Virus genome (UHGV): UHGV-0038492
Origin: a virus
DNA length: 64,000 nucleotides
Reading direction: 5' to 3' (one strand)
Within the stretch, counting starts at the first letter, position 1, and every line of letters begins with the position of its first letter. Under the pieces are notes generated by a model that was given only the letters and a program-made list of their open reading frames with translations, ran no database searches and was not told the DNA's origin. The position numbers and the translations under genes were made by a program. Positions 15,367 to 55,004 of the stretch are shown here, piece after piece.

Positions 15367-15408
15367 TCTCAGATAGATATTACCTTAGTGAGATTACGCT
15401 GTAATCTT
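15367..15408 (+). promoter_or_regulatory. conserved promoter-like element copy 1 (AT-rich box TATATTAC-like + palindrome)
   Basis: tctcAGATAGATATTACCTTAGTGAGATTACgctGTAATCt; one of five related copies, each 20-40 nt upstream of an ATG with SD. Confidence 0.5.
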
Positions 15409-15443
15409 TTAACGACCTGTTTATTACGTTTAGGAGAATTATC

Positions 15444-15620
15444 ATGAACCGCTTCCAATCCAAGAAAGAATTCCAGACAACCGAAGACATGGTGGTCACT
15501 GTGGAAACACCAACCACTGATGTCGTTTGCTTAGTGACACCCATCATAGCGCACAAGAGAAAAGAAGTTTCTCAGTGCCCAGAGGTTCGGGCAGTAAAAC
15601 GTTTTATTAAAGCGCTATAA
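15444..15620 (+). CDS. small hypothetical protein (58 aa)
   Basis: RBS taggaga 7 nt before ATG; first ORF after promoter-like element; weak terminator follows. Confidence 0.4.
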   Translation: MNRFQSKKEFQTTEDMVVTVETPTTDVVCLVTPIIAHKRKEVSQCPEVRAVKRFIKAL

Positions 15621-15625
15621 TTGCT

Positions 15626-15654
15626 AAGCCCTTCGTAGAGGGCATTATTTTTTC
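15626..15654 (+). terminator. weak terminator-like hairpin + T-run
   Basis: Short stem gccct / agggc then attattttttc. Confidence 0.4.
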
Positions 15655-15673
15655 GACCTTTAGGAGAATAGAA

Positions 15674-16225
15674 ATGAACAAATTTAATATCTTAGACGCT
15701 AAAATCGTATCCGAGTCTTCTATTCAGCAAGAAATCTTTCGTGTTCAGTTCGGTGAGAAAGTTCTGAATATTCCGCGCCCAGTTATGATTGGCTTAGCGA
15801 TATTCGTTAACAACAGTCATTGCAACGGTTCGGCGTTGTCAGTTCTTGAGTACGGTAACTATCAGTTCTATATTCCAGAACACCTCGAGTATAACCGTTT
15901 TATTGAACTTAAACCGTTCTATAAGTTCATGCTTGATGCAGGGTATTCGATTCTAACCAAAACGTATATTCGTGACTACTCGAAGTTAGAATCTTTCTAT
16001 CGTGCCCGTGGTTTTCGTGTCCCACAACCGTTTGACGGATACCAGACACGTGTTGTGTTAACTGCACCGTTAACGAAAGAACTGGCTTCCTACAAACTGG
16101 ATATCGAGCAGAAACTGCTGCGTGACGACTTACTGAAAATCTATAACCAGTTGTCCGTGGTTCCTTCTTCAACTATCTCGAACATTGAACCAGAATACGG
16201 AATAAGACAATACATGGAAGGTTAA
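15674..16225 (+). CDS. hypothetical protein (183 aa)
   Basis: RBS taggagaa before ATG 15674. Confidence 0.6.
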   Translation: MNKFNILDAKIVSESSIQQEIFRVQFGEKVLNIPRPVMIGLAIFVNNSHCNGSALSVLEYGNYQFYIPEHLEYNRFIELKPFYKFMLDAGYSILTKTYIRDYSKLESFYRARGFRVPQPFDGYQTRVVLTAPLTKELASYKLDIEQKLLRDDLLKIYNQLSVVPSSTISNIEPEYGIRQYMEG

Positions 16226-16226
16226 G

Positions 16227-16532
16227 ATGAATCCGAGAGCCGACAGAATAGACGTGATACGTTTTGAAGAGTGTGAAACCGAGTACCAGGTTAAACGTAT
16301 CGAATTACGTTTAGTTATCCCTAAGCTAAACGAGCCTGAGTGGAACGGTGAGCTGATGGTACCGCTCGCCGAACCAATTAAAACGGGGGCAGGTGAGATT
16401 AATTATCTTCATTTAGAGGCGGCGGGTCGAAAAGTAACCGTTTGGCATCTTGCCGACGGTTACAAAACCAGTCAGCTTACACGTAAAGCTTTTATTCGGA
16501 AATTAAGAGAGTCGATGGGAGTTGTGAAATGA
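16227..16532 (+). CDS. hypothetical protein (101 aa)
   Basis: ORF starting 2 nt after previous stop; RBS ggaagg. Confidence 0.55.
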   Translation: MNPRADRIDVIRFEECETEYQVKRIELRLVIPKLNEPEWNGELMVPLAEPIKTGAGEINYLHLEAAGRKVTVWHLADGYKTSQLTRKAFIRKLRESMGVVK

Positions 16533-17065
16533 CAGTTACTGTATCTTTGATTGCAGCAGCGGGACTTAATAATGAAATAGGGAAAGACAATAAACTCCCT
16601 TGGCATATTCCCGATGACTTGAAGAACTTCAAAGCACTTACGTCAGGTAGGGTCATCGTGATGGGACGCAAGACGTGGGAATCGTTGGGGTATAAGCCCT
16701 TACCGAACCGACACCATGTTATCTTAACACGAAAACAAGGCGGTGTTCCTGATATCGACGGTGTGTTGAACCTTAAAGGTGATATGGGGTCGGTTATCGA
16801 GTTTCTCAAGAAAGAAGTTGTGGAGAAAGATTACCCGAAAGAAATCTTTATTATTGGCGGTGCAGAGATTTACCAACAAGCGATGCCTTATGCGGATAAG
16901 ATTTACTTGTCTCGTGTTGAGGTTAAGGTAGAGGGTGCGGATGCGTTCTTCCCTGAAATCGATCGCGATGAGTTTAAATTGACTTATAACTTAACACACT
17001 GCTCGAAACCAGAAAGTGGTATTCCGCGTTGGCATTATCAGATTTGGAAAAGAGATGGAAACTGA
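16529..17065 (+). CDS. frd: dihydrofolate reductase
   Basis: Translation SLIAAAGLNNEIGKDNKLPWHIPDDLKNFK...VIVMGRKTWESLG...IFIIGGAEIYQQAMP matches DHFR core motifs (compare E. coli FolA LIAALA..MPW..AD..WF, VIMGRHTWESIG, VIGGGRVYEQ). Confidence 0.93.
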   Translation: MTVTVSLIAAAGLNNEIGKDNKLPWHIPDDLKNFKALTSGRVIVMGRKTWESLGYKPLPNRHHVILTRKQGGVPDIDGVLNLKGDMGSVIEFLKKEVVEKDYPKEIFIIGGAEIYQQAMPYADKIYLSRVEVKVEGADAFFPEIDRDEFKLTYNLTHCSKPESGIPRWHYQIWKRDGN

Positions 17066-17351
17066 GTTTGTAACCTTAGAAAAACTCTTTTTAGGCAGCG
17101 TCGCGAAAAGGAAGATAGTCAGTTTCACTTGGAGCCGCACTCCCGTAAAATACGCGTTTCTACGTCGTTTACACTACGAGAAAAGCATCAAGCTGGTCTT
17201 GGTCGTGTTGTTCGAAAACAAACGCGGATTGTTGATTAATAATCATCGTTTTGCGGCGGAGATCTGGGCGACCACATCTGGCGGTGAGGAAGCGTCTGTT
17301 GGCTTTGCTAACGATAAGGTTATCTTTGAGGATATACCTTATCTGTTATAG
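17055..17351 (+). CDS. hypothetical protein (98 aa)
   Basis: ORF overlapping DHFR stop by 11 nt, start at METEFV; followed by a strong terminator; weak RBS. Confidence 0.35.
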   Translation: METEFVTLEKLFLGSVAKRKIVSFTWSRTPVKYAFLRRLHYEKSIKLVLVVLFENKRGLLINNHRFAAEIWATTSGGEEASVGFANDKVIFEDIPYLL

Positions 17352-17363
17352 CACAGATAAACA

Positions 17364-17400
17364 TAAAAGGGGACTTCGGTTCCCTTTTATTTTTTTTTTC
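17364..17400 (+). terminator. Rho-independent terminator
   Basis: aaaaggggacttcggttccctttt then a run of T. Confidence 0.75.
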
Positions 17401-17441
17401 ATTTCGCGCCTGTGATATGACTATAACGAAGGAACAAGCCA

Positions 17442-18950
17442 ATGCAACAGTATTTTGAAATTCCGTCGTTAGACGCGACCATTCGCAAACCAATAATCGA
17501 TGGCGTTATACAACGTGTACTTAATGAATCAGGTATTGATAAAGCAGCGGTTGTTTTCCTTGATGAATTCAATAGCGCGCATCAACCCGATTCCACGTTA
17601 GGCGACGGTACAGAAGTTGAGTACAGCTCGCCTGAAAAGGTGTATGTTGAAGTAGAAGAAGAACGCGATGAGTGGGCCAGAATCAATCGTCAGGTTGGTC
17701 AGCAAGCCGAACCGTACTTCTTTGAAAACTCCGTCGATCAGGTGCGTGCCTGGCCCGTTAGAACGATGTATAACGTAACGGTAACGTTACGACGTACCAG
17801 TGCTTCTCGTGATGAGTTATTGCGCTGGACAAACCGTTTGGACTCGTTAGTGGACATGGGTCGTTATTCGACAATGACCGAGTCAGAAGCGTTTTATTAT
17901 ATTCCGAAACCGGCACTGAAGTTATTGAATGCCTGTTATGTCGCCGCAGGGACTCGTGTACCGACGTTTGATGATTTTAAAGCCTATCTCAAAGCGTACT
18001 TTACACCCGACGTGTTCCGCGCTGCTAACGTTGCCGGTGGTCAGGAATCTATTGCGGTACGCTATGCACCTACTCGCTTAGAGACTGTATACGACGTTCA
18101 GACACCTGCCTGGGATAAAGACGAGAACCACTGGGAAGCCACATTCGTTGTGCGTTTCTCTTATCAACGTCCCGAAGAGATTGTGGTTTCGTATCCGTAT
18201 ATCATCAACCAGACACCGCTTCCTGATGAATACTGGCCAGAGATAGATCCACCGTGGGTGTCTAACGAAGAACTGGTGTATCGTCATCCGCAACAAAAGA
18301 ATCTCGATTCAACGTGGTGGATTAACGAAACCCGTCAGTATATTCGTTTACCGTATCTACTGTCGCCGACAGAACAGTTCCACCGTACACATTCCCCGTT
18401 AAAAGATAAACTCCTGCACGTCTTCGGTACAGACGTTGTATTCGATGAAGACAACATGAGTTCACCGAAAGTGTTATCTGTCGAGGATTTACCGTACGAG
18501 TGGAATCCAGATTTGTTGCCGTATATCGAACACTGTCGAGCAATAGACCCTACCGGGCAGACGGGTGTCTTCCGTGTAGAGCTGTTCGAAGAAGGACAAA
18601 TCATCGAACCCCGTTTCTATCATTGGGAAGACAATACCTTCTTTTTGAAAGGACGTGATTTAAAAGTTAACAAGAGTTACTACCTAACCGAATCGGTGAT
18701 GTTCGATTGGCGAGGGATGAACCTGTGGCCACTCCAGCTTTATCCTAAAGCCGCGAAAGTGTTGATAGAATGGTTGTTCCCGAAATGGGATGTACCGGAC
18801 TGGTGGTGGGATAAACCCGTATTACCGCCGAGTGTTATCGACGACATTAATAAACTGATTCCTAACGTAGAAGCCCGCGTCTTGCTGACGGTGCTGAACT
18901 CGACCGTGATTACCATGCGAGGGACAGAGAATGCTCAAAGCGAAGCGTGA
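17442..18950 (+). CDS. hypothetical protein (502 aa)
   Basis: Long ORF with RBS aaggaac before ATG 17442. Confidence 0.65.
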   Translation: MQQYFEIPSLDATIRKPIIDGVIQRVLNESGIDKAAVVFLDEFNSAHQPDSTLGDGTEVEYSSPEKVYVEVEEERDEWARINRQVGQQAEPYFFENSVDQVRAWPVRTMYNVTVTLRRTSASRDELLRWTNRLDSLVDMGRYSTMTESEAFYYIPKPALKLLNACYVAAGTRVPTFDDFKAYLKAYFTPDVFRAANVAGGQESIAVRYAPTRLETVYDVQTPAWDKDENHWEATFVVRFSYQRPEEIVVSYPYIINQTPLPDEYWPEIDPPWVSNEELVYRHPQQKNLDSTWWINETRQYIRLPYLLSPTEQFHRTHSPLKDKLLHVFGTDVVFDEDNMSSPKVLSVEDLPYEWNPDLLPYIEHCRAIDPTGQTGVFRVELFEEGQIIEPRFYHWEDNTFFLKGRDLKVNKSYYLTESVMFDWRGMNLWPLQLYPKAAKVLIEWLFPKWDVPDWWWDKPVLPPSVIDDINKLIPNVEARVLLTVLNSTVITMRGTENAQSEA

Positions 18951-23040: not shown

Positions 23041-23158
23041 TCGTAAATGCGTCTTAGACGCTGTTTTACACCTTAAGACGATTAATGGTGTTTAAAAAAT
23101 AAAAGGTCGTCAGAATGCGATACAGCGCGTTTTAGAGGGTGTTTTAATTAAAATATTT

Positions 23159-23199
23159 TCAGATATATATTACTTAGGTGAGAGAATTACGTAATACTC
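23159..23199 (+). promoter_or_regulatory. conserved promoter-like element copy 2
   Basis: tttcAGATATATATTACTTAGGTGAGAGAATTACGTAATACtc with palindromic AATTACGTAATA. Confidence 0.5.
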
Positions 23200-23230
23200 A
23201 TTTATCGAATACCTAATTAGGAGCTATATC

Positions 23231-23374
23231 ATGATTTCTGTAAAACACAAAAAAGCTATCTTCGCTGTTGTTATCGCTGTTGTTCTGGGTTGCCTGTACC
23301 TGGATATCGACAAAGGCTACGACACTTGCATCGACAACGGTAATTCCGTTGCACAGTGCACTGGTCGTGGTTAA
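23231..23374 (+). CDS. small putative lipoprotein (47 aa precursor)
   Basis: RBS aggag 8 nt before ATG; hydrophobic N-terminus ending in lipobox-like VLGC; mature part has 3 Cys; highly biased codons; flanked by promoter-like element and terminator. Confidence 0.5.
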   Translation: MISVKHKKAIFAVVIAVVLGCLYLDIDKGYDTCIDNGNSVAQCTGRG

Positions 23375-24244: not shown

Positions 24245-24248
24245 AAGC

Positions 24249-24296
24249 AACCCCTAATCCCGAAAAGGATTAGGGGTACACTTTATTTATTTTCGC
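24249..24296 (+). terminator. Rho-independent terminator
   Basis: Stem acccctaatcc / ggattaggggt with loop cgaaaa, then T-rich tract. Confidence 0.8.
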
Positions 24297-24320
24297 AATT
24301 TCAACATAGGAGAAAAGTTC

Positions 24321-24479
24321 ATGAAACATGAACAGTTGTTTCAAAGGTTAAACGAGTTGTCCGTAAAACAGCTCGAATTTCAACGAAGGGTTAGTGAAAT
24401 AGCGCAACCAACGTTAACTCAGCCCAAAGTTGCTTATCCAAGAAACACCCAGTTGATAGTTGAAAGGAGAAGTAACTGA
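24321..24479 (+). CDS. small hypothetical protein (52 aa)
   Basis: RBS aggagaaaag before ATG; own downstream terminator hairpin. Confidence 0.35.
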   Translation: MKHEQLFQRLNELSVKQLEFQRRVSEIAQPTLTQPKVAYPRNTQLIVERRSN

Positions 24480-24485
24480 TAAAAA

Positions 24486-24516
24486 CAAGGGGGTGCTGCC
24501 ACACCCCTTTTTTACG
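24486..24516 (+). terminator. Rho-independent terminator
   Basis: aagggggtgctgccacaccccttttttac. Confidence 0.65.
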
Positions 24517-24633
24517 CTTTAACTTTTCCAAAGAGAAGTTAAAGCAGTAGGGGATGACCGACATCCCCTACTGTACGGTGCCAACGCATAAAGACGTTGG
24601 CGTTTCTTACAACGTTACTAAAGGTAATGAAAA

Positions 24634-24804
24634 ATGAACGATTATCAATTACAGATGTTTAATGCGGCGATGCGTAACCGTGAAAAACAAATTCAGTTCA
24701 ACCAACGCATGGATGAATATGTTCGCCTCGGTCTTGTTGCGGCACCTAAAACATCTAATAACCAGAATATACAGCAACCCTATGTAAGGAGAACTGGCTA
24801 CTAA
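24634..24804 (+). CDS. small hypothetical protein (56 aa)
   Basis: RBS aaaggtaatg before ATG 24634; followed by GC hairpin 24816-24837. Confidence 0.35.
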   Translation: MNDYQLQMFNAAMRNREKQIQFNQRMDEYVRLGLVAAPKTSNNQNIQQPYVRRTGY

Positions 24805-24941
24805 TTAACTAATACAGGGGGTGCACTACCACCCCCTACTTGGTTCAGTAGTTGACTTTCGTTCATAATTATTAGATGTCTTGTTTTTTTTGCTTTTCAG
24901 GACGCATAAGGGGTCGTAGGGGGAGCCGAAGCTCCCCAGAC

Positions 24942-27054: not shown

Positions 27055-29340
27055 ATGAAAGATACCCGAATCTCTAATTTAGAGAAACTCGTAGAAGCCG
27101 GTACTAGTCTGGCCCAAAACGTCATCGGCAACAACACCGCCAGCGAAATGTGGAATACGATTGTTGCAGGCGAGTCCGTACGCAGCAACGCAAAAGTGTT
27201 TGGCGTTCTGCGTGACGAAGCATCACAGCACTATGCCAACGCTTTTGGTGGCAAGAAAATGTCTCATGCTGCGACTGTCGCCTCCGCAATGATTCTGGGT
27301 GCAGCTAACCACGGTAAAGACCTGCAAGAACGTGTTGCCCAGGAATACGCTAAGCCGGAATTCCACACCAAGTATAACCTGGATATTGGTATCCCTGGTG
27401 CGCAAGGTGGTGACTGGGGTCGTGAGCGCATGGTTGTTGCTCAGGAATATTACAGCAACAAAGACTACGACAAAAACCTGGGCCTGACCTGGACCCTGAA
27501 CGTACGTGCTCTGGAAACTCAGTCCAAGTTTGCTGAAACGCTGTTCCCGACCATTACCGTTGACACCAACGATGTTGGTATTACCGTACGTACTAAAGTG
27601 ACTACCGTTTCTCGCGGTATCATGAACGCGCTGCTGAGCAAAGACGTGGTTGAAGACCATCGTCGTCCGCTGCACAACGCACTGACTGACCACACCGTTC
27701 TCCAGGACGAAGCGATCAACATCGTTCCTTACGTAATGGAAACCGGTGAAAACCAGGAATACTTCGTAAGCGAAGAACTGGTTCCGAACGAAAAAGTTCG
27801 CCTGGGTCGTGTACCTCCGTACCCGACTAACTACCTGAGCTTTGCAAACGACACGCTGAACCTGTTCCAGCTGTCTGCGCATCCGGGTATCGTTCAGGAA
27901 GGTTACGATGAAACTGATGAAATCGCACCGGGTTGTGCTCTGGGCAGCCTGCTGATTTCTGTACGTAAACCTGCCGAAGAAGCGAAAGCAGGTAAATTCA
28001 TCAAACTACACGTTCGTGACATGCAGTTCGCAACCTTCCAGCGTCCTGCTGAAGGTGACGGCCGTGAACTGGTTCTGCAATTCCGTCGTACCGCGTTCTC
28101 TCTGAATGCGAAAACCACTGACTGGAAAGGCGACGCTATTCCGGCTCTGCAAGCACTGGGTCAGAACTCCTACACCCTGCGCTACGTTATCACCATCACC
28201 ATGTCCCTGTTCACCAGCGGCCAGTTCGGTGGTAAAGTAGACATTTCCGGCCACAAACTGGAAATCGAAGGTCTGTACGATGCAACTGGTAACAAAGTTG
28301 ATACCAAGTCTGGTACCGGTAAAGTTATCCTGGACGGCCTGAAACTCGAACTGATGGGCTGGCGCTTCGATGGTACTCGTACCAACGAAAACCGTCGTAC
28401 CCAGGGTCTGCTGCTTGACCCAATTTGGGAACAGGAAAACTACAAACTGCAATACGGTTCTCCGATTCTGACCAAGTCTCCGGTTGGTGTTGAATACGAC
28501 GACACTGAACGTCTGGACGACCTGATCTCTGCGGTGAACATCCGTAACGAACAGCTGGCTATTACTCAGACGCTGTCTTACACTGAAGCAGTACGTAACG
28601 CAGCCGCTGCGATGATCACTCCGTGGGACAAACCGGCTATCCGTGGTCTGGGCCGTCACTGGGTTGCTCCGTGGTTCAAAGAGTCTGACTACAAAGTCGA
28701 TGAAGTTGTTCAGTCTCTGGATACCAAAGAAGCGCTGATCAACGCTCGTCAGGGTCTGTTGCAGCGTATCGGTAGCCAGGTAACTCAGGCTATCCAGGAT
28801 TCTCGTTTCATTCCTGCACTGCGCCTGCTGACCGCTGATCCGGACATTCTGCCGAAAGTTATCATCGCAACTGACGAACCGACTGCATCTATGCTGCTGC
28901 TGGTTCAGGGCGACCAACGTCTGCTGGGCGACCGTTATGAATACGAAGTCGTTACCACCAACGATGACCGCTGGCGTATCTACAACGCAGCTGACGATTC
29001 CTGGACTCGTCGTCTGCAATGGTTCCTGAAAGTTCCGACTGCGGACGATGGTTCCTACTGCGTACTGAACTGGGGTAACCACTTCTGGTCTCCGATCATG
29101 GTTACCAACATCAACATCCAGCGTAACGGTTCTACTTCTAAAGAACTGGCTGTACAGCCGCGTAACGCGCATATCTGCCACTGCCCGATCACTGGTCTGA
29201 TTTGGGTTAAAGGCATCACCAAACTGGTTGAAGAAAAACTGGCTTACAACGTTTCTGTAGAACAGAACGGCCAGAAACAAACCGACGGTGGTGTAGCAGG
29301 TAATGTTGCTGGCGACGGTAAAGACAAAGCTGGTAAATAA
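27055..29340 (+). CDS. major capsid protein (phiKZ-like jumbo phage type), putative
   Basis: 761 aa (~83 kDa) ORF with RBS aagg, the strongest codon bias in the window, strong terminator after it; size and composition fit my recollection of phiKZ/SPN3US-type capsid proteins; no search run. Confidence 0.6.
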   Translation: MKDTRISNLEKLVEAGTSLAQNVIGNNTASEMWNTIVAGESVRSNAKVFGVLRDEASQHYANAFGGKKMSHAATVASAMILGAANHGKDLQERVAQEYAKPEFHTKYNLDIGIPGAQGGDWGRERMVVAQEYYSNKDYDKNLGLTWTLNVRALETQSKFAETLFPTITVDTNDVGITVRTKVTTVSRGIMNALLSKDVVEDHRRPLHNALTDHTVLQDEAINIVPYVMETGENQEYFVSEELVPNEKVRLGRVPPYPTNYLSFANDTLNLFQLSAHPGIVQEGYDETDEIAPGCALGSLLISVRKPAEEAKAGKFIKLHVRDMQFATFQRPAEGDGRELVLQFRRTAFSLNAKTTDWKGDAIPALQALGQNSYTLRYVITITMSLFTSGQFGGKVDISGHKLEIEGLYDATGNKVDTKSGTGKVILDGLKLELMGWRFDGTRTNENRRTQGLLLDPIWEQENYKLQYGSPILTKSPVGVEYDDTERLDDLISAVNIRNEQLAITQTLSYTEAVRNAAAAMITPWDKPAIRGLGRHWVAPWFKESDYKVDEVVQSLDTKEALINARQGLLQRIGSQVTQAIQDSRFIPALRLLTADPDILPKVIIATDEPTASMLLLVQGDQRLLGDRYEYEVVTTNDDRWRIYNAADDSWTRRLQWFLKVPTADDGSYCVLNWGNHFWSPIMVTNINIQRNGSTSKELAVQPRNAHICHCPITGLIWVKGITKLVEEKLAYNVSVEQNGQKQTDGGVAGNVAGDGKDKAGK

Positions 29341-29352: not shown

Positions 29353-29393
29353 AGTGTCTAAGCCCTTCGGGGCTTAGACCTTTTATTTTTTTC
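29353..29393 (+). terminator. Rho-independent terminator
   Basis: Stem gtctaagccc / gggcttagac with loop ttcg, then cttttatttttttc. Confidence 0.8.
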
Positions 29394-29406
29394 TTTCTAT
29401 TATTTT

Positions 29407-29438
29407 TTGGATAGATATTATCAAAGGGAGACTGTCAG
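29407..29438 (+). promoter_or_regulatory. conserved promoter-like element copy 3 (divergent variant)
   Basis: ttggATAGATATTATCAAAGGGAGActgtcag; shares the AT-rich box and GAGA half-site but the palindrome is degenerate. Confidence 0.35.
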
Positions 29439-29457
29439 TTGGTTTAAAGGAGACTTT

Positions 29458-29508
29458 ATGGAAAAATTACAGTTAAAACTAAAGATATGTACCATTATTA
29501 AAACTTAA
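29458..29508 (+). CDS. possible leader micro-ORF (16 aa)
   Basis: ATG with strong SD aaaggaga 6 nt upstream; ends 12 nt before the 29521 gene, which itself lacks an SD. Confidence 0.25.
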   Translation: MEKLQLKLKICTIIKT

Positions 29509-29520: not shown

Positions 29521-30531
29521 ATGAACCGTCTTGATATTGATGTGGTGCCCAGTATTACTGACCGCTCGTTGTATCAAAAGTCAGGACTGCAAAAACTCAT
29601 CACTTTTGAGAATAATACTGGTGTGCCAATTTACGTCACTGAAACCAGTGGCGGTAGCTTTATTTTAACTCCGTCCAAAAGCCCGGCTGATGAGCATGGG
29701 GTTGTTGTTTATGTAACGTATCAATCGTTCGGAAATCTGGTTAACCTGAACGGGTTTGCAGAAGTCTTACCAGAAAAACAATTCACTAAATTCTGTGCAG
29801 ATTTAAAGGAGAAAGGAGAGGTCACACTCCGATACGTGGTTGACGATATCGGTGCTTTATTACGTGGGGACTTGGTTGTATTGAAGCAGCTAGGATTCGC
29901 ATTTTCAATCACACCAGTTCGATTAGAAAGTACGCCACCGAGCGTAAGACCAGGAGGCGAGAGAACTGAATTTACATTAGGTGTTATTGTTGTGCAGCGT
30001 TACGACGATCCCGAACTATATCGATGGATTAGATTCTACGGAACGCGCATGGAAGTACAACCGATTCTATCTCGATATTACGAACCGGGTGTGTACATGG
30101 TAATCGGAGGAGGAGACAAAGTAGAAGGGAGTAGGATGATTCACTTCGAGTTCGATGACTTACTGTCACCGTTCCGTGTTTTTAAAGATAAAGAAACAGC
30201 CACTGCGTTTCGATGGCAAGAAACGTTACCGGATATTCACGAGATAAAGGAAAAGCTGGAAAGTCAATACAGAGAAAAATTAGAAAGTTTGGATTCGGCA
30301 AAAGACAAACTGGAAATAGAACACAAAAAACAACTACAGAATTTGGCTTTGGAAAAGGAGCGTTTGACTCTAGCGTATAAACAACAAGAACTAGAAGCAA
30401 AGTCTCGGGCAGAGGCACGAAAAGAATTCTACGAGACTCGTTCTTACATTCGTAAAGATGGGTCAGACCTATTTAAATCAGTCCCTGCGTATCTGGCGGC
30501 GGGTGTCGCATTTATAGGGATGCTAAAGTAA
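29521..30531 (+). CDS. hypothetical protein (336 aa) with coiled-coil-like region and C-terminal hydrophobic segment
   Basis: ORF; heptad-like charged repeats (KEKLESQYREKLESLDSAKDKLE...) and C-terminal AYLAAGVAFIGML. Confidence 0.55.
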   Translation: MNRLDIDVVPSITDRSLYQKSGLQKLITFENNTGVPIYVTETSGGSFILTPSKSPADEHGVVVYVTYQSFGNLVNLNGFAEVLPEKQFTKFCADLKEKGEVTLRYVVDDIGALLRGDLVVLKQLGFAFSITPVRLESTPPSVRPGGERTEFTLGVIVVQRYDDPELYRWIRFYGTRMEVQPILSRYYEPGVYMVIGGGDKVEGSRMIHFEFDDLLSPFRVFKDKETATAFRWQETLPDIHEIKEKLESQYREKLESLDSAKDKLEIEHKKQLQNLALEKERLTLAYKQQELEAKSRAEARKEFYETRSYIRKDGSDLFKSVPAYLAAGVAFIGMLK

Positions 30532-30541
30532 GGAGCGTGGC

Positions 30542-32317
30542 GTGTTTAAAGATGCAATCAGAAAGCTTAAAGAGGATGGCAAAATAGTACCCTTTAACCG
30601 AGCGATTGCGGAAGGTGTCGGTTATACACAGGCCAAAGACGGTATACACGAGCGTGTTCAGATTATCTTGAAACGTGAGCTGGATTATCATCCTGTTGAT
30701 AATCCGCGTGTTCCTGAAGGGCTGGCTGTATTAGGCGTACGGTTAATGTCACCGTTTGAAACGTTCATCTATAAGCTGTCTCGTTCTGAGAGCAGCAGAA
30801 TGGATAGACGTCGTGGTGTGATGTCCATTGCGAATACTGATGCGTATATGGTCATGTCAACATTCCGTATTCCAGGAGATTCTCGACCGATCTCAAGACC
30901 GATTAACTTACCCTTTATCCGTCGTGGTGGTTTAATGAACTACTACGGTACGACGTATCACGTTGCACCGGTTATTCACCAGCCAGGTATCTGTCGCGAA
31001 CACGGTGGGGTATTTGTTAACTTTGACTTTAAACGTAAAGCCTCGTTGAAATTCTGTAAGCAACCTGTCCGTGTGTTAGTCAACGGCAAGAAAGAGGAGC
31101 TATTCTTACCAGGCACCAAAAACCTGTTCAAAGCGAAGAACGCAACACATCCTGATACTGACGAGAAACCGTTAATGTATTGGTTGTTCGGACGTTACGG
31201 ATTTAAAGAAGCGATTAAACGCTATACTGGTGTTGACGTAGAAATTTATCCGTCGTTTAAGATCCCAGAACTCGATCTCAACGAGAAAGTTGTAATCAGT
31301 TCCGGTGAATCGAAATATAACCGTTCGATAATGTACGCGGTTGTCGTGCCCGCGGAAGCATTGCCGAACGTGGATAAAGTCGGTTGGGATCAAAACGAGC
31401 ATTTGTTGCTGGCCGCAATTGCCGCGTTCTTCAAAGCCGCTCATTACTATTGCAGTAAACAATCCATTAAGAACGGTAACGTCACGCCGCTCCCGCCGCT
31501 GTTTACCGCAATTAACGAGTTAGCGATGGAAGACGATATTGCTAACCTGAACTCTGCTCCGATTTGGCGTGAGATTCTGGGAAGAAGTATCGTAGGACTA
31601 AAACCTTCCGATATTGAGTTAGCACACAGTATGGCGAAACACTATACTGAATGCGATCGCTATGTTAACTCAACGTTCCGTGCAGAACTGAAGATGACCG
31701 ATCCCGACATTCCAGACGACATGGATATGTTCGATTTCTTCTGGTATGCAACGAAGCTGATGGTACGTACCCGTTTAACCAAACAGGGTGACATTCCGTC
31801 AATGTACGGAAAACGTTTAACCGTAACTGACTACTTACTGTTAGGTGACCGTGGCTTTACACCAACGGTAGCGGCTATTCGTTTCCACCTGGGACAAACG
31901 GAGAATCGTTCGCCAGAATCCTGCGCGAATATGATTCGTAGCGCACTCAATAAAGAAATTGTCACGAGTCTGGTGTTGCGTAATATCACTGGTAACGGTG
32001 GTGTAAGTTATTTCAATGCATCAACAGAGTCCATGGTACTAGGAGTATCCACACACGCAATCAGTCAAACTGAAACGGAATCTAAACGTAACAGCAAAGG
32101 CGGTAAAACGGTTAACCTTAACGACCGTACGAAGCACGCTTCTGCATCGCACCTCGAATGCGGTAACGTTTATTACATTCCGAAGTCGTCCCCATTCAAA
32201 TGGGGTGTCCTTAACCCGTATATGAAAACTAACCGTCAATTAGTGATGGTTCGTAATCCAAAACTTGACGAGTTAATCCAAGCAACCGAAGAAGACATTG
32301 CGAAGATTGGCCGTTAA
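30542..32317 (+). CDS. hypothetical protein (591 aa), GTG start
   Basis: GTG 30542 with RBS aggag 7 nt upstream; long ORF. Confidence 0.6.
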   Translation: MFKDAIRKLKEDGKIVPFNRAIAEGVGYTQAKDGIHERVQIILKRELDYHPVDNPRVPEGLAVLGVRLMSPFETFIYKLSRSESSRMDRRRGVMSIANTDAYMVMSTFRIPGDSRPISRPINLPFIRRGGLMNYYGTTYHVAPVIHQPGICREHGGVFVNFDFKRKASLKFCKQPVRVLVNGKKEELFLPGTKNLFKAKNATHPDTDEKPLMYWLFGRYGFKEAIKRYTGVDVEIYPSFKIPELDLNEKVVISSGESKYNRSIMYAVVVPAEALPNVDKVGWDQNEHLLLAAIAAFFKAAHYYCSKQSIKNGNVTPLPPLFTAINELAMEDDIANLNSAPIWREILGRSIVGLKPSDIELAHSMAKHYTECDRYVNSTFRAELKMTDPDIPDDMDMFDFFWYATKLMVRTRLTKQGDIPSMYGKRLTVTDYLLLGDRGFTPTVAAIRFHLGQTENRSPESCANMIRSALNKEIVTSLVLRNITGNGGVSYFNASTESMVLGVSTHAISQTETESKRNSKGGKTVNLNDRTKHASASHLECGNVYYIPKSSPFKWGVLNPYMKTNRQLVMVRNPKLDELIQATEEDIAKIGR

Positions 32318-42216: not shown

Positions 42217-42258
42217 CCAACCTCTACCTTCGGGTAGAGGTTTTCTTCTTTTTATTTT
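42217..42258 (+). terminator. Rho-independent terminator
   Basis: Stem cctctacc / ggtagagg with loop ttcg, then ttttcttctttttatttt. Confidence 0.8.
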
Positions 42259-48872: not shown

Positions 48873-48912
48873 CTTACCCCTACCTATCGGTAGGGGCGGG
48901 TTTCTTTTTTTA
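48873..48912 (+). terminator. Rho-independent terminator
   Basis: Stem cccctacc / ggtagggg with loop tatc, then cgggtttcttttttt. Confidence 0.8.
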
Positions 48913-49008
48913 TCCTAAAATTTATTACAACCAATAGCTATTATGTGAACGCCGGTATGGAATAAAGAAGTATCGGTTTAAATTTTTGTGCGTAAAGGTA
49001 AAACGATA

Positions 49009-49637: not shown

Positions 49638-49676
49638 TACCCCTACCTTCGGGTAGGGGATTATTTAATTTTTTCT
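49638..49676 (+). terminator. Rho-independent terminator
   Basis: Stem acccctacc / ggtagggg with loop ttcg, then attatttaatttttt. Confidence 0.8.
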
Positions 49677-49717
49677 CAGATATATATTACCTTAGTGAGA
49701 TTACACAGTAATCTCTT
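49677..49717 (+). promoter_or_regulatory. conserved promoter-like element copy 4
   Basis: tcAGATATATATTACCTTAGTGAGATTACacaGTAATCTC with perfect 8 bp inverted repeat GAGATTAC/GTAATCTC. Confidence 0.5.
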
Positions 49718-49750
49718 TACGACTTGTTCTACAGATTAGGATTAAATATC

Positions 49751-50110
49751 ATGGCTTACAATCACAACTCTATTGTTTTAGCAAAACGTAAATTCGGTCT
49801 TCATCTTTCTTACGTGATTCGTCATTTGACAGCGAAAGACATTACACAGCGTGAACTTGCCCAGCTTGCGAAAGTTTCACAGCCGGTTATTTCATCTATT
49901 AAGAACGATCATAGCGAACGCCTGAGTCTACCAATAATGATGAAGGTTGCTGATGCAATTCGTCTGAAATATCAGATTACGTTTAATTCTGTTAAAGGGC
50001 GTTGCTCAGTAACGGTTCACGTAGAGTCTGCGTTGGACTACGTTGCAAATACGTCCCTTAAACGTACAGCGAAAAATATTCGTTTTGTTACTAACAGCGC
50101 AACACACTAA
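49751..50110 (+). CDS. XRE-family helix-turn-helix DNA-binding protein, putative regulator (119 aa)
   Basis: HTH-like segment ITQRELAQLAKVSQPVISSIKN; RBS agga before ATG 49751; directly downstream of promoter-like element copy 4. Confidence 0.55.
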   Translation: MAYNHNSIVLAKRKFGLHLSYVIRHLTAKDITQRELAQLAKVSQPVISSIKNDHSERLSLPIMMKVADAIRLKYQITFNSVKGRCSVTVHVESALDYVANTSLKRTAKNIRFVTNSATH

Positions 50111-50901: not shown

Positions 50902-51888
50902 ATGGTATATCGTAAAACGATAGAAAGAACCTCTTCTGATTTAACCGTAGGACGCTTAACCCGTAGAGATATTCGCAATCCTCAGCTTCAGGCATGTTTA
51001 ACGGGGCCTAACGGTGCGGTGATTCGAGAAGCACTGTGTAATACCGAGCTGAATACGTTCTCTTTACAAAAAGGAAAAACAATCCAAGGGTTTATCATCA
51101 CAAAACACATTTACGGCGACCCAACGTTACACTGCTTGTATATGCACGAAATTGTACCTGGGTGTTTGAACAAACTGAGCCTTCTATTGGTACTTGACTA
51201 TACGGGTTTTACGTACCTTAACCGAATTGCCAGAGGTGTGGAAGAAATCGCCGAGCTTAACGATTTAGGGTTTAGACATACCCACACAGCATATCGTTTA
51301 GGTACACGTAAGTTACTGGATGTCACTTTACCGACGAACGTGAAGAACGTCTCCGACGACTTCTATAAAGACTTAACCGGAGCACAACGTGAACAGCTTA
51401 TGATGTTGCTTGGCACTAGCGTCGTTGAAAACATCAATGCTGACCCTGTAACGCGTTCTCGACAAATAATGCCACAAGTTGAAACATTGGTGGAATTAGT
51501 GCGGCACGTCAATCACTACACTTACGTTTGGATGGACGGTAATGACGTTGTGGGTGTGGTGCAAGTTAAATCACGCAATCTTAGCGAGTGCGAACTAAAA
51601 GCCATTGCGGTAAGTGAAACACACCGGGGCCGTGGGATTGGGCGTGCGTTGTTGTACCGTGCTTTACAGATTGCATCGACAACAGCGGCACCATTAGAAA
51701 TAGGGTGTTACAATAACAACCCAGCATTTAGACACCTGGCCGTAGATTTGTTTAAATTCCGTCCCTACGAGTACGAATTTGTTTTAGTGCGCGACGACGA
51801 TGTCGTCAGTTGGGAGCGTCGGAAAAACCGCGTCGAGTTAGTGTTAGGCGACGAAATGTCATCGTTACAAGGCGGAATTAATGCATAA
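50902..51888 (+). CDS. GNAT-domain protein (328 aa; acetyltransferase fold in C-terminal half)
   Basis: RBS aaggag before ATG; C-terminal half carries VGVVQV...IAVSETHRGRGIGRALLYRA motif; N-terminal half unassigned. Confidence 0.55.
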   Translation: MVYRKTIERTSSDLTVGRLTRRDIRNPQLQACLTGPNGAVIREALCNTELNTFSLQKGKTIQGFIITKHIYGDPTLHCLYMHEIVPGCLNKLSLLLVLDYTGFTYLNRIARGVEEIAELNDLGFRHTHTAYRLGTRKLLDVTLPTNVKNVSDDFYKDLTGAQREQLMMLLGTSVVENINADPVTRSRQIMPQVETLVELVRHVNHYTYVWMDGNDVVGVVQVKSRNLSECELKAIAVSETHRGRGIGRALLYRALQIASTTAAPLEIGCYNNNPAFRHLAVDLFKFRPYEYEFVLVRDDDVVSWERRKNRVELVLGDEMSSLQGGINA

Positions 51889-52696
51889 ACCAATTATAAA
51901 GTGGATGGGTGGCAAATCGCGGATTATCGACACCTTACTACAAGTCTTACCTGAACGTACCACTTTCGTTGAACCGTTTGTTGGCGCAGGGTCAGTGTTT
52001 TTGAACACACGTTATAAACGTTACATTCTTGCTGACTCTAACCCTGACTTAATCCAGTTGCTGAATGTAGCGAAAGACCAACCTGAAGAACTTATCTTGA
52101 AGTCGAAACCGCTATTCGAAGACGGTAACGATTGTATTAAGTATATGGAGAGACGAGAACTGTTTAATCGCGAAACGGATATGGCTCCGTTAGACCGGGC
52201 AGCAATGTTTCTGTACTTAATGCGTCACGGTTTTAACGGGATGTGTCGTTACAACGGCAGCGGGGGTTTTAACGTTCCGTTTGGTCGCTATCCTAACGGT
52301 GTGTATTACCCGTTAGAAGAGATTCGTGGTTGGGCTAAACGTTGTCAAGAACCGGAATACTTAGAAATTGTTTGTGAAGATTTCCGAACAGTTTTAGAGC
52401 GTACGCCGGAAGACAGTGTGATTTACGCAGACCCACCGTATATACCGCTCTCAGAGACCGCTAAACACGCGCAATACCATCGGAAGGAGTTTTCCCAGGC
52501 CGACCATCGGGAACTCGCCAGAGCGCTGTTTAAGCAGGTTGAGAAGGGGAATAGCGTTGTGTTGTCCAATGCGGATACGTTACTAACGCGTGAGATTTAT
52601 TACGGGTTCGAATGGCGTTCTGTGGAAGTTGGCCGATACATGGGTGCGTCAGGTGCTGCTCGTAAAACGGTAACGGAATTGTTAGGAGTGCTCTAA
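51881..52696 (+). CDS. dam: DNA adenine methyltransferase (Dam-like, N6-adenine)
   Basis: WMGGKSR, VEPFVGAGSVFLNT, YILADSNPDLI and catalytic DPPY motifs in Dam order; closely parallels E. coli Dam. Confidence 0.93.
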   Translation: MHKPIIKWMGGKSRIIDTLLQVLPERTTFVEPFVGAGSVFLNTRYKRYILADSNPDLIQLLNVAKDQPEELILKSKPLFEDGNDCIKYMERRELFNRETDMAPLDRAAMFLYLMRHGFNGMCRYNGSGGFNVPFGRYPNGVYYPLEEIRGWAKRCQEPEYLEIVCEDFRTVLERTPEDSVIYADPPYIPLSETAKHAQYHRKEFSQADHRELARALFKQVEKGNSVVLSNADTLLTREIYYGFEWRSVEVGRYMGASGAARKTVTELLGVL

Positions 52697-53469
52697 TGCG
52701 TATAGTGGATATCCACGATTATCGTAATGACCATTTAGCGATTGGTGTAGAAGGTAAGATGGTTTCGTTAACCCGTGTACGCAAAGGGTTAATGGAAAAG
52801 GAGATCATTCGGGAGTCCGAAGACCCTACCTTTATCATCCTTTCGAACACTAATCAGTTACAGGGCATCTTTTCAGGGCGTGCTGACGGTAAGATTTTCT
52901 ATATGTCCGCAATCGTTGTGTTTGCGAAGAAGAACATCAACTTTGCCCAACTCAAACGTTTGTTAAACGTGAAGATGTTTGATGTCACCTACCCTGCTAA
53001 TGACCTAAAACGTCGTGATCAGTTAATGGCGTTTTTGGGTATGCAGCCAACGTCAATCGATTATGACCTTACGATTACTGAAAAGCCGGAAGTACGTACT
53101 GACTTACCTGACGTGGTCGACGTTGAATCCCTAACGTTAGAAGAGACGTTTACGATTCCTAAGGTTGTTAATGTCAACCTGGACACGCACTGTTTAGGGT
53201 TGTTAGCCGTAGGTGCAGCAGAAGGGTTGTGTTGTCGTAAAGACGGTAAGGTTGAAGGAATCTTAGTCTATTCGAAAATCAACGAAAAGACGTTTGCCAC
53301 CGAAGGCTTTTTCTATAACGACTGTACTTACGGAAACGCACTACTAACCACGTATTTCCGTATTGCTTATCTGAAAGGCGCAACTGTACGCCTCACGTTT
53401 CCATACACAGCTCCACCGTCTATGGGTGGAGTTGAGGTAGAACCATTAACCGGCCACTTTATCTTTTAA
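52696..53469 (+). CDS. hypothetical protein (257 aa)
   Basis: Coupled start (TAATG) directly after dam. Confidence 0.6.
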   Translation: MRIVDIHDYRNDHLAIGVEGKMVSLTRVRKGLMEKEIIRESEDPTFIILSNTNQLQGIFSGRADGKIFYMSAIVVFAKKNINFAQLKRLLNVKMFDVTYPANDLKRRDQLMAFLGMQPTSIDYDLTITEKPEVRTDLPDVVDVESLTLEETFTIPKVVNVNLDTHCLGLLAVGAAEGLCCRKDGKVEGILVYSKINEKTFATEGFFYNDCTYGNALLTTYFRIAYLKGATVRLTFPYTAPPSMGGVEVEPLTGHFIF

Positions 53470-53478
53470 GGATGATGA

Positions 53479-53706
53479 ATGGAAATCAAACGTATTGTAA
53501 CCAAAAACAAACAGATTGTTTACGTCGCAGGTGATAACGAATTCTCGGCGGTAATCAACAGCGAAAATGTGCTCGTTATCGGTTATCCGGGTAAAGTTAT
53601 TACGCGCAGTCACCAACGTGTGATTGACAAACTTATCGCAAAAGCGAAAGCGCGTGACGGTGTTGGTTCAGTACAAACCCACACGGGGTTAACGCTGGCC
53701 CTCTAG
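53479..53706 (+). CDS. hypothetical protein (75 aa)
   Basis: RBS aaggatg before ATG 53479. Confidence 0.5.
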   Translation: MEIKRIVTKNKQIVYVAGDNEFSAVINSENVLVIGYPGKVITRSHQRVIDKLIAKAKARDGVGSVQTHTGLTLAL

Positions 53707-53745
53707 TCAGCAGGTAATATGACCTCTTAACTGGAGACTTTAATA

Positions 53746-54252
53746 ATGAGTGAGACTCTGGATTTTAATCAGCTCGAACAACACGATTTCGACCTCGGTG
53801 TTCGTGATATCGATGCTGATCATGAAACACGTTGTAAAGAGCTGTTTAACCGTTACGGTCAGCTCATCACCGGTGCCTCTGATGACACCGAATTCAGTTT
53901 AGATGAGTTTGAAAAAGTTCTGTCGTGTTTTATCACTGACTGTCTGGCGAAGAAAGCGTTGCTGGTCGAACTGAACTTAGACTCCGTCGAACCTACTGAT
54001 GCCCATGCGGTGTTGAAAGAATCCATTATCCCAACTGATGAGATTATGGACACTGTCGCAGGTATTCGCGGTACGTTTGAAACTGCCGTAGAAGAATACA
54101 CGGAACAGCTTCGTGAATCAGGACTGACGTTGTGTGCGCCAGCAGGTGAGCCTTTACCGTCCGACGAAGAAACTGAAGAAGCGCGTAGTCGCTTAGCGCG
54201 TTATGTTATTACGTCTATCTTGGTAGATGATCGCGAAGAGAATCTGCTATAA
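53746..54252 (+). CDS. highly acidic hypothetical protein (168 aa)
   Basis: RBS tggagac; composition rich in Asp/Glu (net charge roughly -20 by eye); terminator follows. Confidence 0.6.
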   Translation: MSETLDFNQLEQHDFDLGVRDIDADHETRCKELFNRYGQLITGASDDTEFSLDEFEKVLSCFITDCLAKKALLVELNLDSVEPTDAHAVLKESIIPTDEIMDTVAGIRGTFETAVEEYTEQLRESGLTLCAPAGEPLPSDEETEEARSRLARYVITSILVDDREENLL

Positions 54253-54254
54253 GC

Positions 54255-54295
54255 TGCCCCTCTCTCCGTTTGGAGAGAGGGTGTATTTATTTTTA
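54255..54295 (+). terminator. Rho-independent terminator
   Basis: Stem cccctctctcc / ggagagaggg with loop gttt, then gtatttattttt. Confidence 0.8.
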
Positions 54296-54350
54296 CGCGT
54301 ATAGCCGTAGTTATGCACAAGTAAACAAAATTAATTGAGGAAACAATCTG

Positions 54351-54668
54351 ATGTGGTTAAGTGCTATTCACCGTGATTTGCCAAAACGTGAAGTGTCGTT
54401 TACTGTTGAGGACGCACCGATTGAGGTAGGCGTCGCGAAATTCGAAAGAATCGAAGAAGGGCAGTTTGTTGTAATGGATGACAACGACAACGAATTTATG
54501 TTGTTCCATCCGGAAGTTGACACGTCTGAAATTTGTGACGGTGTTCTTTTGTTGTCTTGGCAAAACCCTGAAACCAAAGAATGGATGTGGTGTGTTGCTA
54601 AACCGACAAATGAAGCCGAAACTGCATACGTGTTTGGGGAAATTTATGTCGAGCCAGAACCGCACTAA
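54351..54668 (+). CDS. hypothetical protein (105 aa)
   Basis: RBS gaggaaa before ATG 54351. Confidence 0.55.
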   Translation: MWLSAIHRDLPKREVSFTVEDAPIEVGVAKFERIEEGQFVVMDDNDNEFMLFHPEVDTSEICDGVLLLSWQNPETKEWMWCVAKPTNEAETAYVFGEIYVEPEPH

Positions 54669-54957
54669 TACTGATGAGTCCAATATACAGCGCTTGCAAC
54701 GGGCACTAACTGCGCCTCTAGGCGGCGAGATTCACGATCGTTGGGTAATTGCGAGGGTGGTAGAGATTGATTATTCTCAGGGACAGTTAATGTTAAATAA
54801 CTGCTCGACGAACGTGCCTTTCACGTTACCGCGCGATATATTCCGTCTTACGCCCAACGTTGATGAAATACTGACAATTGACAGGAAACTTCTATCGATA
54901 GAACTTCAGCATTTCCCCCTGCCTGGTAAGTCGGTTAACATTGCTTTGTCCAGTTAA
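54655..54957 (+). CDS. hypothetical protein (100 aa)
   Basis: ATG 54655 with RBS gggga 5 nt upstream, overlapping upstream gene by 14 nt (track start 54478 rejected). Confidence 0.45.
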   Translation, partial: QNRTNTDESNIQRLQRALTAPLGGEIHDRWVIARVVEIDYSQGQLMLNNCSTNVPFTLPRDIFRLTPNVDEILTIDRKLLSIELQHFPLPGKSVNIALSS

Positions 54958-54970
54958 CGGTCTAAAAAAT

Positions 54971-55004
54971 TTAAGATATATTTCATCTATGTGAGAATTC
55001 TCAC
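54971..55004 (+). promoter_or_regulatory. conserved promoter-like element copy 5 (variant)
   Basis: ttaAGATATATTTCATCTATGTGAGAATTCTCAC with perfect palindrome GTGAGAATTCTCAC. Confidence 0.4.

Follow-up and report, generated by a model that had tools for sequence, protein, structure and literature searches.

The virus genome UHGV-0038492, analysed here as one stretch of 64,000 nucleotides (nt) that is referred to throughout as the window, carries five copies of a dispersed element at the five places given by an earlier, sequence-only reading of the same DNA. By analogy with characterised phage promoters, these five elements are very probably early promoters of the phiKZ-type virion-RNA-polymerase class. 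The whole explanation, in which virion-polymerase early promoters are fused to a leader and a hairpin in that leader protects the 5′ end of the message, is judged likely.

The copies, numbered 1 to 5 along the window, were placed in register by the first base of a 13-nt core, AGATAKATATTAC, which is followed by six variable bases (N6) and then by a G. In this register the cores start at 15371, 23161, 29409, 49678 and 54974. Copies 1, 2 and 4 match the core exactly, the block being AGATAGATATTAC in copy 1 and AGATATATATTAC in copies 2 and 4; copies 3 and 5 depart from it (GGATAGATATTAT and AGATATATTTCAT, respectively), and both keep the N6-GAGA spacing. With the G taken as the predicted +1, the consensus order is an A/T-rich tract of about 12 nt (approximately -31 to -20), a 13-nt block AGATAKATATTAY (-19 to -7), the six variable bases and the G, usually as part of GAGA. 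The tracts at -31 to -20 read AAAAATAATCTC, TAAAATATTTTC, CTATTATTTTTT, TAATTTTTTCTC and CTAAAAAATTTA in copies 1 to 5. The family was also recovered independently by an unbiased repeat search, as repeat families D2 (copies 1, 2, 4 and 5) and D7 (copies 1 to 4), and a third family, D6, is a stretch of 66 nt at 83% common to copies 1 and 4. The element had been described as about 40 bp long, a length that fails for copies 1, 2 and 4, in which the promoter is repeated together with the whole 51-54-nt leader up to the ATG. As these three copies resemble one another all the way to the start codon, leader included, the repeated unit measures about 90 bp and not 40 bp.

A position weight matrix scan of both strands of the window placed the five copies far above the random level. 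With a leave-one-out matrix the held-out copies scored 25-41 bits, and all other positions in the window, on either strand, scored 11.3 bits or less. An independent matrix, trained solely on 46 sites from distant genomes, gave 35-50 bits to the five window copies and -4 to the next-best window position, and its maximum over 30 simulated 128-kb sequences was 2.7 bits. As the profile scores leave a wide gap to every other window position, the number of copies is exactly five. All are on the + strand, with none on the - strand, and all lie within the approximately 7% of the window that is non-coding. The 13-mer alone, with two mismatches allowed, is not significant, five being found in the window against 2.3 expected; the significance resides in the full 35-nt profile. 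Among the 46 sites from distant genomes most core positions from -19 to -7 carry 1.3-1.8 bits each, and the G that follows N6, from which the start is predicted on sequence grounds, is invariant in these sites and in the five copies (2.0 bits).

The sequence-only reading had likened the core to the phiKZ early promoter, and this was correct: TATATTAC-N6-G is present in the phiKZ sequence. The + strand of the first 50 kb of phiKZ has seven copies of TATATTAC and the - strand has none, and every copy is in an intergenic region and is followed by N6-G. PHIKZ054 is preceded by one of these sites, and another has the window core unchanged, AGATATATATTAC. A full-text literature search for TATATTAC returned unrelated papers only. 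The early promoter consensus of AR9 is AAATATATATTAT-(6N)-G+1, and in phiKZ and phiR1-37 the distance from the element to the downstream start is likewise 6 nt (PMC5312081). Early promoters of the phiKZ type are characterised by an AT-rich stretch, about 10 nt long, with its midpoint near -10 (PMC7598289), and differential RNA sequencing of phiKZ revealed a T-rich tract upstream of -19 in early promoters (PMC8244752). The AT-rich block, the 6-nt spacing to a conserved G and the upstream A/T-rich tract of this class are all seen in the window motif. The proposal of a phage-specific promoter of the phiKZ early class is thus supported: the core and the geometry match phiKZ and AR9, and the motif is conserved by position across genera.

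The major capsid protein encoded in the window (27055-29340) shows approximately 80% identity to its counterparts in phiEaH2, Stratton and Asesino, which are phages of Erwinia, and 78% to the one in the Salmonella phage SPN3US, and the gene order of the window is collinear with 43-107 kb of SPN3US. The window therefore belongs to an undescribed phiKZ-like jumbo phage. A search of the phage collection gave no genome nearly identical to the window. Its relatives in IMG/VR are two contigs with about 97-99% identity and one with about 80-90%; records of relatives there include IMGVR_UViG_3300045988_078609, _095954 and _113438. Judged by its genes, this phage group appears to encode both a virion-packaged and a non-virion multisubunit RNA polymerase. 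A homologue of PHIKZ123, a subunit of the non-virion enzyme, is inside the window and the virion polymerase genes are outside it; SPN3US has seven genes annotated as RNA polymerase beta-like, and virion polymerase subunits are present in that phage (PMC5312081). Searches by tblastn (E = 1e-3) with phiKZ chimallin, PhuZ, gp14 and Dip gave no match in SPN3US or in the window.

SPN3US has the motif in four gaps that are orthologous to those of the window: one follows the second internal head protein gene, one precedes the gene for a 47-amino-acid (aa) protein, one follows the capsid gene and one precedes a helix-turn-helix (HTH) gene. The motif is also conserved at orthologous positions in metagenomic relatives. 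The whole SPN3US genome has 17 sites above 20 bits, or about 20 if the cut-off is relaxed, and the strand with most genes bears them all. When 2.9 million viral contigs were scanned with an exact pattern, three to six matches per contig were obtained only in SPN3US/phiEaH2-type contigs of about 150-250 kb, and single matches elsewhere. All 79 of the 79 profile matches in contigs of this type are on one strand per contig, and in both SPN3US and the window this is the strand that bears most genes. The TATTAT-type core AGATAGATATTATCT is near-palindromic and gives weak mirror matches on the opposite strand of SPN3US (72684/72702 and 191602/191620); these are a scanning artefact and are no evidence of divergent promoters.

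The genes downstream of the copies were also considered. A 591-aa protein encoded after copy 3 is homologous to PHIKZ123, the phiKZ non-virion RNA polymerase subunit (7ogp_E, E 1.9e-17). Copy 3 fits an early promoter, because this subunit is needed before the non-virion enzyme exists. Two SPN3US sites, at 28969 and 15614, also precede RNA polymerase beta-like genes. The first genes after copies 1, 2 and 5 encode small proteins and that after copy 4 an HTH regulator. The sites head units for small proteins, a Cro-like regulator, a DHFR operon and a polymerase subunit, and would therefore define a first-wave regulon.

In the mechanism that is proposed, the sites would be read by a multisubunit RNA polymerase that the virion carries and that enters the cell along with the DNA, the phage being a phiKZ-like jumbo phage of the nucleus-forming type. 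This enzyme would recognise the A/T-rich tract (about -31 to -20) together with the 13-nt block AGATAKATATTAY (-19 to -7) and would begin transcription at the G six bases past the block, that is at 15390, 23180, 29428, 49697 and 54993, each within about 2 nt. Transcription by the injected polymerase would start within minutes of infection. The five sites would then map the first-wave transcription units, and the predicted starts of five early operons, of an uncultured jumbo phage, and the 35-nt profile provides a means of finding early promoters across the SPN3US/phiEaH2 group.

For the dyad at the predicted start the sequence-only reading had offered either an operator or a 5′ RNA hairpin. 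Of these two suggestions the RNA hairpin is now favoured and the operator disfavoured, as variable stems, an excess of G-U pairs and starts at +1 fit a sense-strand RNA structure and fit a fixed-geometry operator poorly. One detail was misread earlier: the dyad of copy 1 ends in GTAATCTT and not in GTAATCTC, which gives a G-U closing pair.

Hairpins were surveyed at 74 unique sites from 13 genomes or contigs as contiguous stems with their first base between +1 and +3. Such a stem, 6 bp long or longer, was present at 62% of the sites, compared with 7% of shuffles that kept the GAGA, 9% of 1737 other genomic GAGA starts and 6% of shifted windows. When the sites were counted by sequence cluster, a hairpin was present in 20 of 41 against a null of 9% (p = 5e-11). 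The stem begins at the predicted +1 in 36 of 46 cases, at +2 in four and at +3 in six. There are 26 distinct 5′ arms, each with a matching 3′ arm, and the loops are of 3-9 nt. The stems contain 39 G-U pairs (35 G-T and 4 T-G) against 13 A-C, and the number of 8-bp stems rises from 7 to 24 if G-U is allowed but only to 12 if A-C is allowed.

Orthologues that were picked by their downstream protein, and not by structure, retain a +1 hairpin of differing sequence. Before the HTH gene, the hairpin is GAGAUUAC-N3-GUAAUCUC in the window and its 97% relatives (loops ACA, AUC and GCU), GAGAGUUA-CAAU-UAACUCUU in the 80% relative and GAGAGUU-N7-AACUCUC in SPN3US, each folding at -6.5 to -8.2 kcal/mol. 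A double change, T:A versus C:G, is found in one stem between two relatives (L055 and L020) that are each about 97% identical to the window. In nine hairpins of the same geometry, a set chosen for forming stems, 100% of the cells pair and 3/8 pairs have double changes. MAFFT/RNAalifold misaligned the loops of mixed-geometry hairpins and reported broken pairs, and was replaced by per-sequence folding, the same-geometry subset and a custom stem search. The results suggest that most early messages in the lineage begin with a base-paired 5′ end that is kept by compensatory change. Among sites with C at -7 (TATTAC, n = 51), 78% carry the hairpin and 90% GAGA, and the median length of the leader is 52 nt; in the window copies of this type (1, 2 and 4) the first 19-21 nt of the conserved leader, of about 52 nt, run from GAGA to UCUC or UCUU and would form a stem-loop from +1.

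Several points weigh against this interpretation. The polymerase, the start site and the timing have been assigned, for this phage and its close relatives, by analogy. The matrix with which related sites were gathered had been seeded from the copies in the window, so that these sites are not fully independent, and many of the surveyed sites are paralogous or orthologous to one another. Of the five window copies only 1 and 4 have a convincing hairpin: copy 2, with an interrupted dyad, and copy 3, with a wobble-rich stem, fold no better than shuffles, and the palindrome of copy 5 is strong as RNA only when transcribed from -2 (-5.9 kcal/mol), a start at +1 leaving a 3-bp stem. The dyad reaches -1 and -2 in 10/36 sites, and a start 1-2 nt upstream is possible. 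The stems are short and AU-rich, at -5 to -8 kcal/mol, and the G-T excess would be tolerable in a single-stranded DNA hairpin of the non-template strand as well. Sites with T at -7 (TATTAT, n = 23) have the hairpin in only 26% of cases and a median leader of 34 nt, and only two of the seven phiKZ sites examined have one. The hairpin is a property of a subclass and not of the whole promoter class.

The possibility that the sites are read by another polymerase was weighed. Were they host sigma-70 promoters, the tract would be an UP-like AT-rich sequence and TATATT or TATTAC a -10-like hexamer; the core does include TATATT, one mismatch from TATAAT, with an A/T-rich tract upstream, and weak 9/12 matches overlap copy 5 and lie just upstream of the copy 3 core. 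However, no -35 is conserved and, with +1 at the conserved G, the main subclass has C at -7 where T is needed. In addition, the 13-nt block is conserved across phages of Salmonella, of Erwinia and of unknown hosts and matches the phiKZ/AR9 virion-polymerase promoters (PMC5312081), and phiKZ-type phages transcribe independently of the host polymerase (PMC7598289). As the sigma-70 matches are at chance level at all five sites, this reading was rejected, its probability being very small indeed. It is also highly improbable that the elements are promoters of the second, non-virion polymerase, of the middle or late class. Several sites do stand among structural genes, for example after the capsid and internal head protein genes, but the known motifs differ: the phiKZ late motif is TATG, the phiKZ middle motif is TACT or a weak AT-rich sequence near -22 to -24, and the AR9 late motif is AACA-N6-TA/G (PMC7598289, PMC8244752), whereas the window motif is of the early type. 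Moreover, it precedes the gene for a non-virion subunit, which is required before that enzyme exists, and the structural operons on the - strand of the window all lack it.

Other roles can be proposed for the dyad or for the repeated unit. If the dyad at +1 were a DNA operator, a phage repressor, such as the Cro/C1-type HTH protein after copy 4, would use it to shut off early transcription, its own included. Such a gene indeed comes first after copy 4 and after the orthologous SPN3US site, copies 1 and 4 have the same dyad (GAGATTAC-N3-GTAATCTY), outer GAGA...TCTC half-sites are common to all dyads, and the palindrome of copy 5 and of some relatives reaches upstream of +1 into untranscribed DNA. 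The outer GAGA may equally be explained as a conserved initially transcribed sequence, though, and the distance between half-sites varies, with loops of 3-9 nt and whole dyads of 10-23 nt. The 26 different arms, in which the inner stem is free to vary, suit base-pairing and not a dimer of fixed geometry, and 35 G-T plus 4 T-G against 13 A-C is a strand asymmetry unexpected of a double-stranded site, so that an operator is improbable. Similarly doubtful is a hairpin that acts with its U-run (CUUUUA) as a promoter-proximal pause, as an attenuator, as a terminator that frees short RNAs or as an aid to promoter clearance by a sigma-less polymerase. Three to five T follow most stems, and phiKZ termination sites are often in 5′ untranslated regions just past promoters, with abundant short RNAs (PMC10914365); at the SPN3US site 165687 (165687-165770; L004 22688) the hairpin is followed by a strong terminator, GGCTACCTTCGGGTAGCC with a T-run, an arrangement that predicts an RNA of about 50 nt without an open reading frame (ORF). 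Against this, the AU-rich stems are weak for intrinsic termination (-5 to -8 kcal/mol) and a Shine-Dalgarno (SD) sequence follows at a near-constant +37 to +43, then the start codon; since the SD is so well placed, the leaders are built for translation. Finally, the terminator-promoter-leader unit could be kept mainly as a recombination cassette for swapping small genes, like the PeSL cassettes of T4-type phages (PMC2839356, PMC4122927). This is compatible with promoter function and, as the main reason for conservation, unlikely. There is one clear gene swap, at copy 1, where the window and two relatives lose homology at the start codon that ends the leader. Among the relatives compared (L052, L109 and L017), one 97% relative shares the 58-aa ORF at 15444-15620 with the window, the place is taken by an unrelated, longer gene (100 aa or more) in another 97-99% relative and in the 80% relative, and homology past the ATG resumes after about 140 nt in the window or about 600 nt in the relatives. 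Three of the five copies (1, 3 and 4, but not 2 and 5) are terminator-promoter composites, and the loops ACA, GCT and ATC of copies 1 and 4 are spread among strains as if exchanged. The clear swap is, however, the only one, repeat recombination is a by-product of any dispersed repeat, and conservation between genera and the match to phiKZ argue that promoter function is what selection keeps.

With virion-polymerase promoters as the preferred reading, the function of the hairpin can be considered. An RNA-level role of some kind seems moderately likely. The stabilising effect of 5′ structures on mRNA is explained by the fact that neither RppH nor the 5′ sensor of RNase E can work unless the 5′ end is single-stranded (PMC3997798). 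By analogy, the stem-loop would bury the 5′ end of the early mRNA and so block the onset of decay by host RppH and 5′-end-dependent RNase E. That the hairpin stabilises early mRNA in this way is put forward tentatively; it makes a testable claim about how transcripts of an injected polymerase could outlast host RNA decay before any phage protein exists. It is improbable that the +1 stem-loop, in which the GAGA...UCUY closing pairs are constant, is more than a passive shield against nucleases and marks first-wave transcripts with a class-specific tag that is read by a phage or host factor. Such a tag would serve export from the early infection vesicle, translation licensing or protection from RNA-targeting defence, and a hairpin-bearing immediate-early set (TATTAC) would then separate from a hairpin-less set (TATTAT). 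A search of the jumbo-phage transcription literature, of which coverage was incomplete and did not extend to Ceyssens 2014 and Lavysh 2016, turned up neither a +1 hairpin nor a conserved early leader.

The individual copies, all on the + strand, are arranged as follows. Before copy 1, a terminator-like hairpin (13 bp) with a T-run at 15309-15337 ends the internal-head-protein gene. The copy 1 promoter (15359-15389) consists of the tract AAAAATAATCTC, the core AGATAGATATTAC (15371-15383) and the spacer CTTAGT. From the predicted +1 G at 15390 the hairpin GAGAUUAC-GCU-GUAAUCUU (15390-15408) has 8 bp, a folding energy of -5.5 kcal/mol and a z of -5.0, and the 54-nt leader (15390-15443) continues with a UUUUA linker, an AACGAC box (15411-15416) and the SD AGGAG (15432-15436). 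The ATG at 15444 opens the 58-aa ORF, and the operon reaches a DHFR homologue at 16529-17065. The paralogous neighbours at 12673-13944 and 14027-15292, upstream of this copy, are orthologues of two SPN3US 'internal head protein' genes, and parts of their DNA are 71-81% identical (repeat families D1, D8 and D16).

The copy 2 promoter (23149-23179) has the tract TAAAATATTTTC, the core AGATATATATTAC (23161-23173) and the spacer TTAGGT. Its leader of 51 nt (23180-23230, predicted +1 at 23180) includes the imperfect dyad GAGAGAATTACGTAATACTC (23180-23199), which folds weakly (-1.5 kcal/mol), an ATCGAA box (23204-23209) and an SD (23219-23223), and the ATG at 23231 opens a conserved 47-aa ORF (phrog_8574).

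Between the major capsid gene and copy 3 is a terminator-like hairpin of 10 bp with a UUCG loop (29356-29379). The copy 3 promoter (29397-29427), of the TATTAT subclass, has the tract CTATTATTTTTT, the core GGATAGATATTAT (29409-29421) and the spacer CAAAGG. The predicted +1 is at 29428 and the leader of 30 nt (29428-29457) contains a marginal, wobble-rich stem (29429-29445) and the SD AGGAG (29448-29452). A mini-ORF of 16 codons (MEKLQLKLKICTIIKT, 29458-29508) with a strong SD stands ahead of the first genes of the operon (29521-32317), which encode a 336-aa protein (phrog_7286) and then the 591-aa PHIKZ123 homologue (30542-32317). SPN3US has an unrelated, unannotated small ORF at the place of this mini-ORF, and a second promoter copy directly before the orthologue of the 336-aa gene, without a counterpart in the window.

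The terminator-like hairpin CCCCTACCTTCGGGTAGGGG (49640-49659) lies between a thymidylate-kinase-like gene and copy 4, the promoter of which (49666-49696) has the tract TAATTTTTTCTC, the core AGATATATATTAC (49678-49690) and the spacer CTTAGT. The hairpin GAGAUUAC-ACA-GUAAUCUC (49697-49715), with 8 bp, -8.2 kcal/mol and a z of -4.7, begins at the predicted +1 at 49697. It opens a 54-nt leader (49697-49750) with an ACGAC box (49719-49723) and the SD AGGA (49738-49741). The first gene (49751-50110) encodes the 119-aa Cro/C1-type helix-turn-helix protein (HTH_37, HTH_26, HTH_3; phrog_7126). Among strains of about 97% identity the loops at 15398-15400 and 49705-49707 vary while the stems stay identical, and the same loop variants occur at either locus in different strains, as if by gene conversion between cassettes 34 kb apart.

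Copy 5 follows an ORF that ends at 54957. Its promoter (54962-54992) has the tract CTAAAAAATTTA, the divergent core AGATATATTTCAT (54974-54986) and the spacer CTATGT. A perfect 14-nt palindrome, GTGAGAATTCTCAC, spans -2 to +12 (54991-55004). The predicted +1 is at 54993 and the leader is of 35 nt, with the SD GGAG at 55015-55018 and an 89-aa ORF (phrog_12339) at 55028-55297.

A terminator had been placed right before each copy by the sequence-only reading; this holds for copies 1, 3 and 4, but the terminator nearest to copy 2 is 130 nt away on the upstream side and copy 5 lacks one. Several families of terminator hairpins are repeated in near-identical form along the window, for example CCCTACTCC...GGAGTAGGG with a T-run, TACCCCTACCTTCGGGTAGGGG and TGCCCCTCTCTCC...GGAGAGAGGG. 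These recurrent families are found at 293-333, 5659-5699 and 24252-24292; at 42219-42258, 48875-48914 and 49638-49677; and at 54255-54294 and 55302-55341, and they recall the conserved terminator motif reported for phiKZ. A third leader module is seen between the hairpin and the SD: ACGAC or ATCGAA in window copies 1, 2 and 4. In SPN3US and in several of the metagenomic relatives it reads (A)TYGACYAT and precedes the SD by about 3-10 nt. The start-codon context in these early leaders is often ATCATG. In two other jumbo contigs (L006 1273 and L122 7060) what comes after the promoter is not an SD but a long, structured stretch that resembles a tRNA.

Long non-coding gaps without the early motif are present at 2608-3064, 3317-3534, 24245-24941, 54253-54477, 55298-55699 and 60643-60850. 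Some of them separate divergent genes, and none has an Rfam match; Rfam families gave no match anywhere in the window. These gaps may hold promoters of another class or small RNAs.

Among known systems the closest is phiKZ. Its early promoters share the core, the geometry, the A/T- or T-rich upstream tract, the intergenic position on the coding strand and 5′ untranslated regions of about 30-55 nt. The window lineage differs from phiKZ in its longer block AGATAKATATTAY, and its main subclass adds GAGA at +1 to +4, the +1 stem-loop and the conserved leader; the phiKZ starts are measured and those of the window predicted. Motifs have reportedly been predicted for all phiKZ-like phages (Lavysh 2016). 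The AR9 core is identical to AGATATATATTAC at 11/13 positions and to the TATTAT subclass at 12/13, and the 6-nt spacer and the G start are alike. The word hairpin occurs 0 times in the AR9 paper (PMC5312081). AR9 promoters are served by a multisubunit polymerase from the virion and need no new protein synthesis, as is proposed here, but AR9 infects Bacillus, has uracil in its DNA and forms no phage nucleus. As TATATTAC-N6-G is common to phiKZ, from Pseudomonas, and to the enterobacterial-type lineage, and nearly so to AR9, from Bacillus, the specificity of the virion polymerase is very old.

The N4 polymerase has a single subunit, and its recognition signal is a DNA hairpin that lies upstream of the start. 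N4 resembles the present case in its virion-injected RNA polymerase and in the short hairpin that is tied to its early promoter (PMC4496689). Unlike that of N4, the dyad of the window type is downstream of +1, variable in size and lacking at about a third of sites. An N4-like recognition hairpin was rejected on these grounds, the dyad being downstream of +1, absent or weak in 38% of sites and variable in stem and loop. The hairpin is not a polymerase recognition element, because it is limited to a subclass, absent from many sites and variable in size. PeSL cassettes are similar in being dispersed units of stem-loop terminator and early promoter that flank small variable genes and mark swap breakpoints. 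They differ in that the promoter is read by host sigma-70 and the stem-loop is an upstream terminator, not a +1 hairpin, and the evidence for shuffling in the window phage comes from one locus.

The 5′-terminal stem-loops of ompA and papA in E. coli belong to single host genes, whereas in the window lineage a whole promoter class would be concerned, with a function that is assigned by analogy. The T7 phi10 transcript is made by a phage polymerase, starts with GGGAGA and has an immediate 5′ stem-loop, an A/U-rich leader and a strong Shine-Dalgarno sequence, and its stem-loop has been reported to stabilise the mRNA. This layout is the same as that of copies 1 and 4, but T7 differs in its single-subunit polymerase, its unrelated promoter sequence and its late, not early, class. 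The finding confirms rather than surprises, since the promoter class is textbook for this phage family: the window provides a further member of a known promoter class, to which the hairpin-leader subclass is a modest, testable addition.

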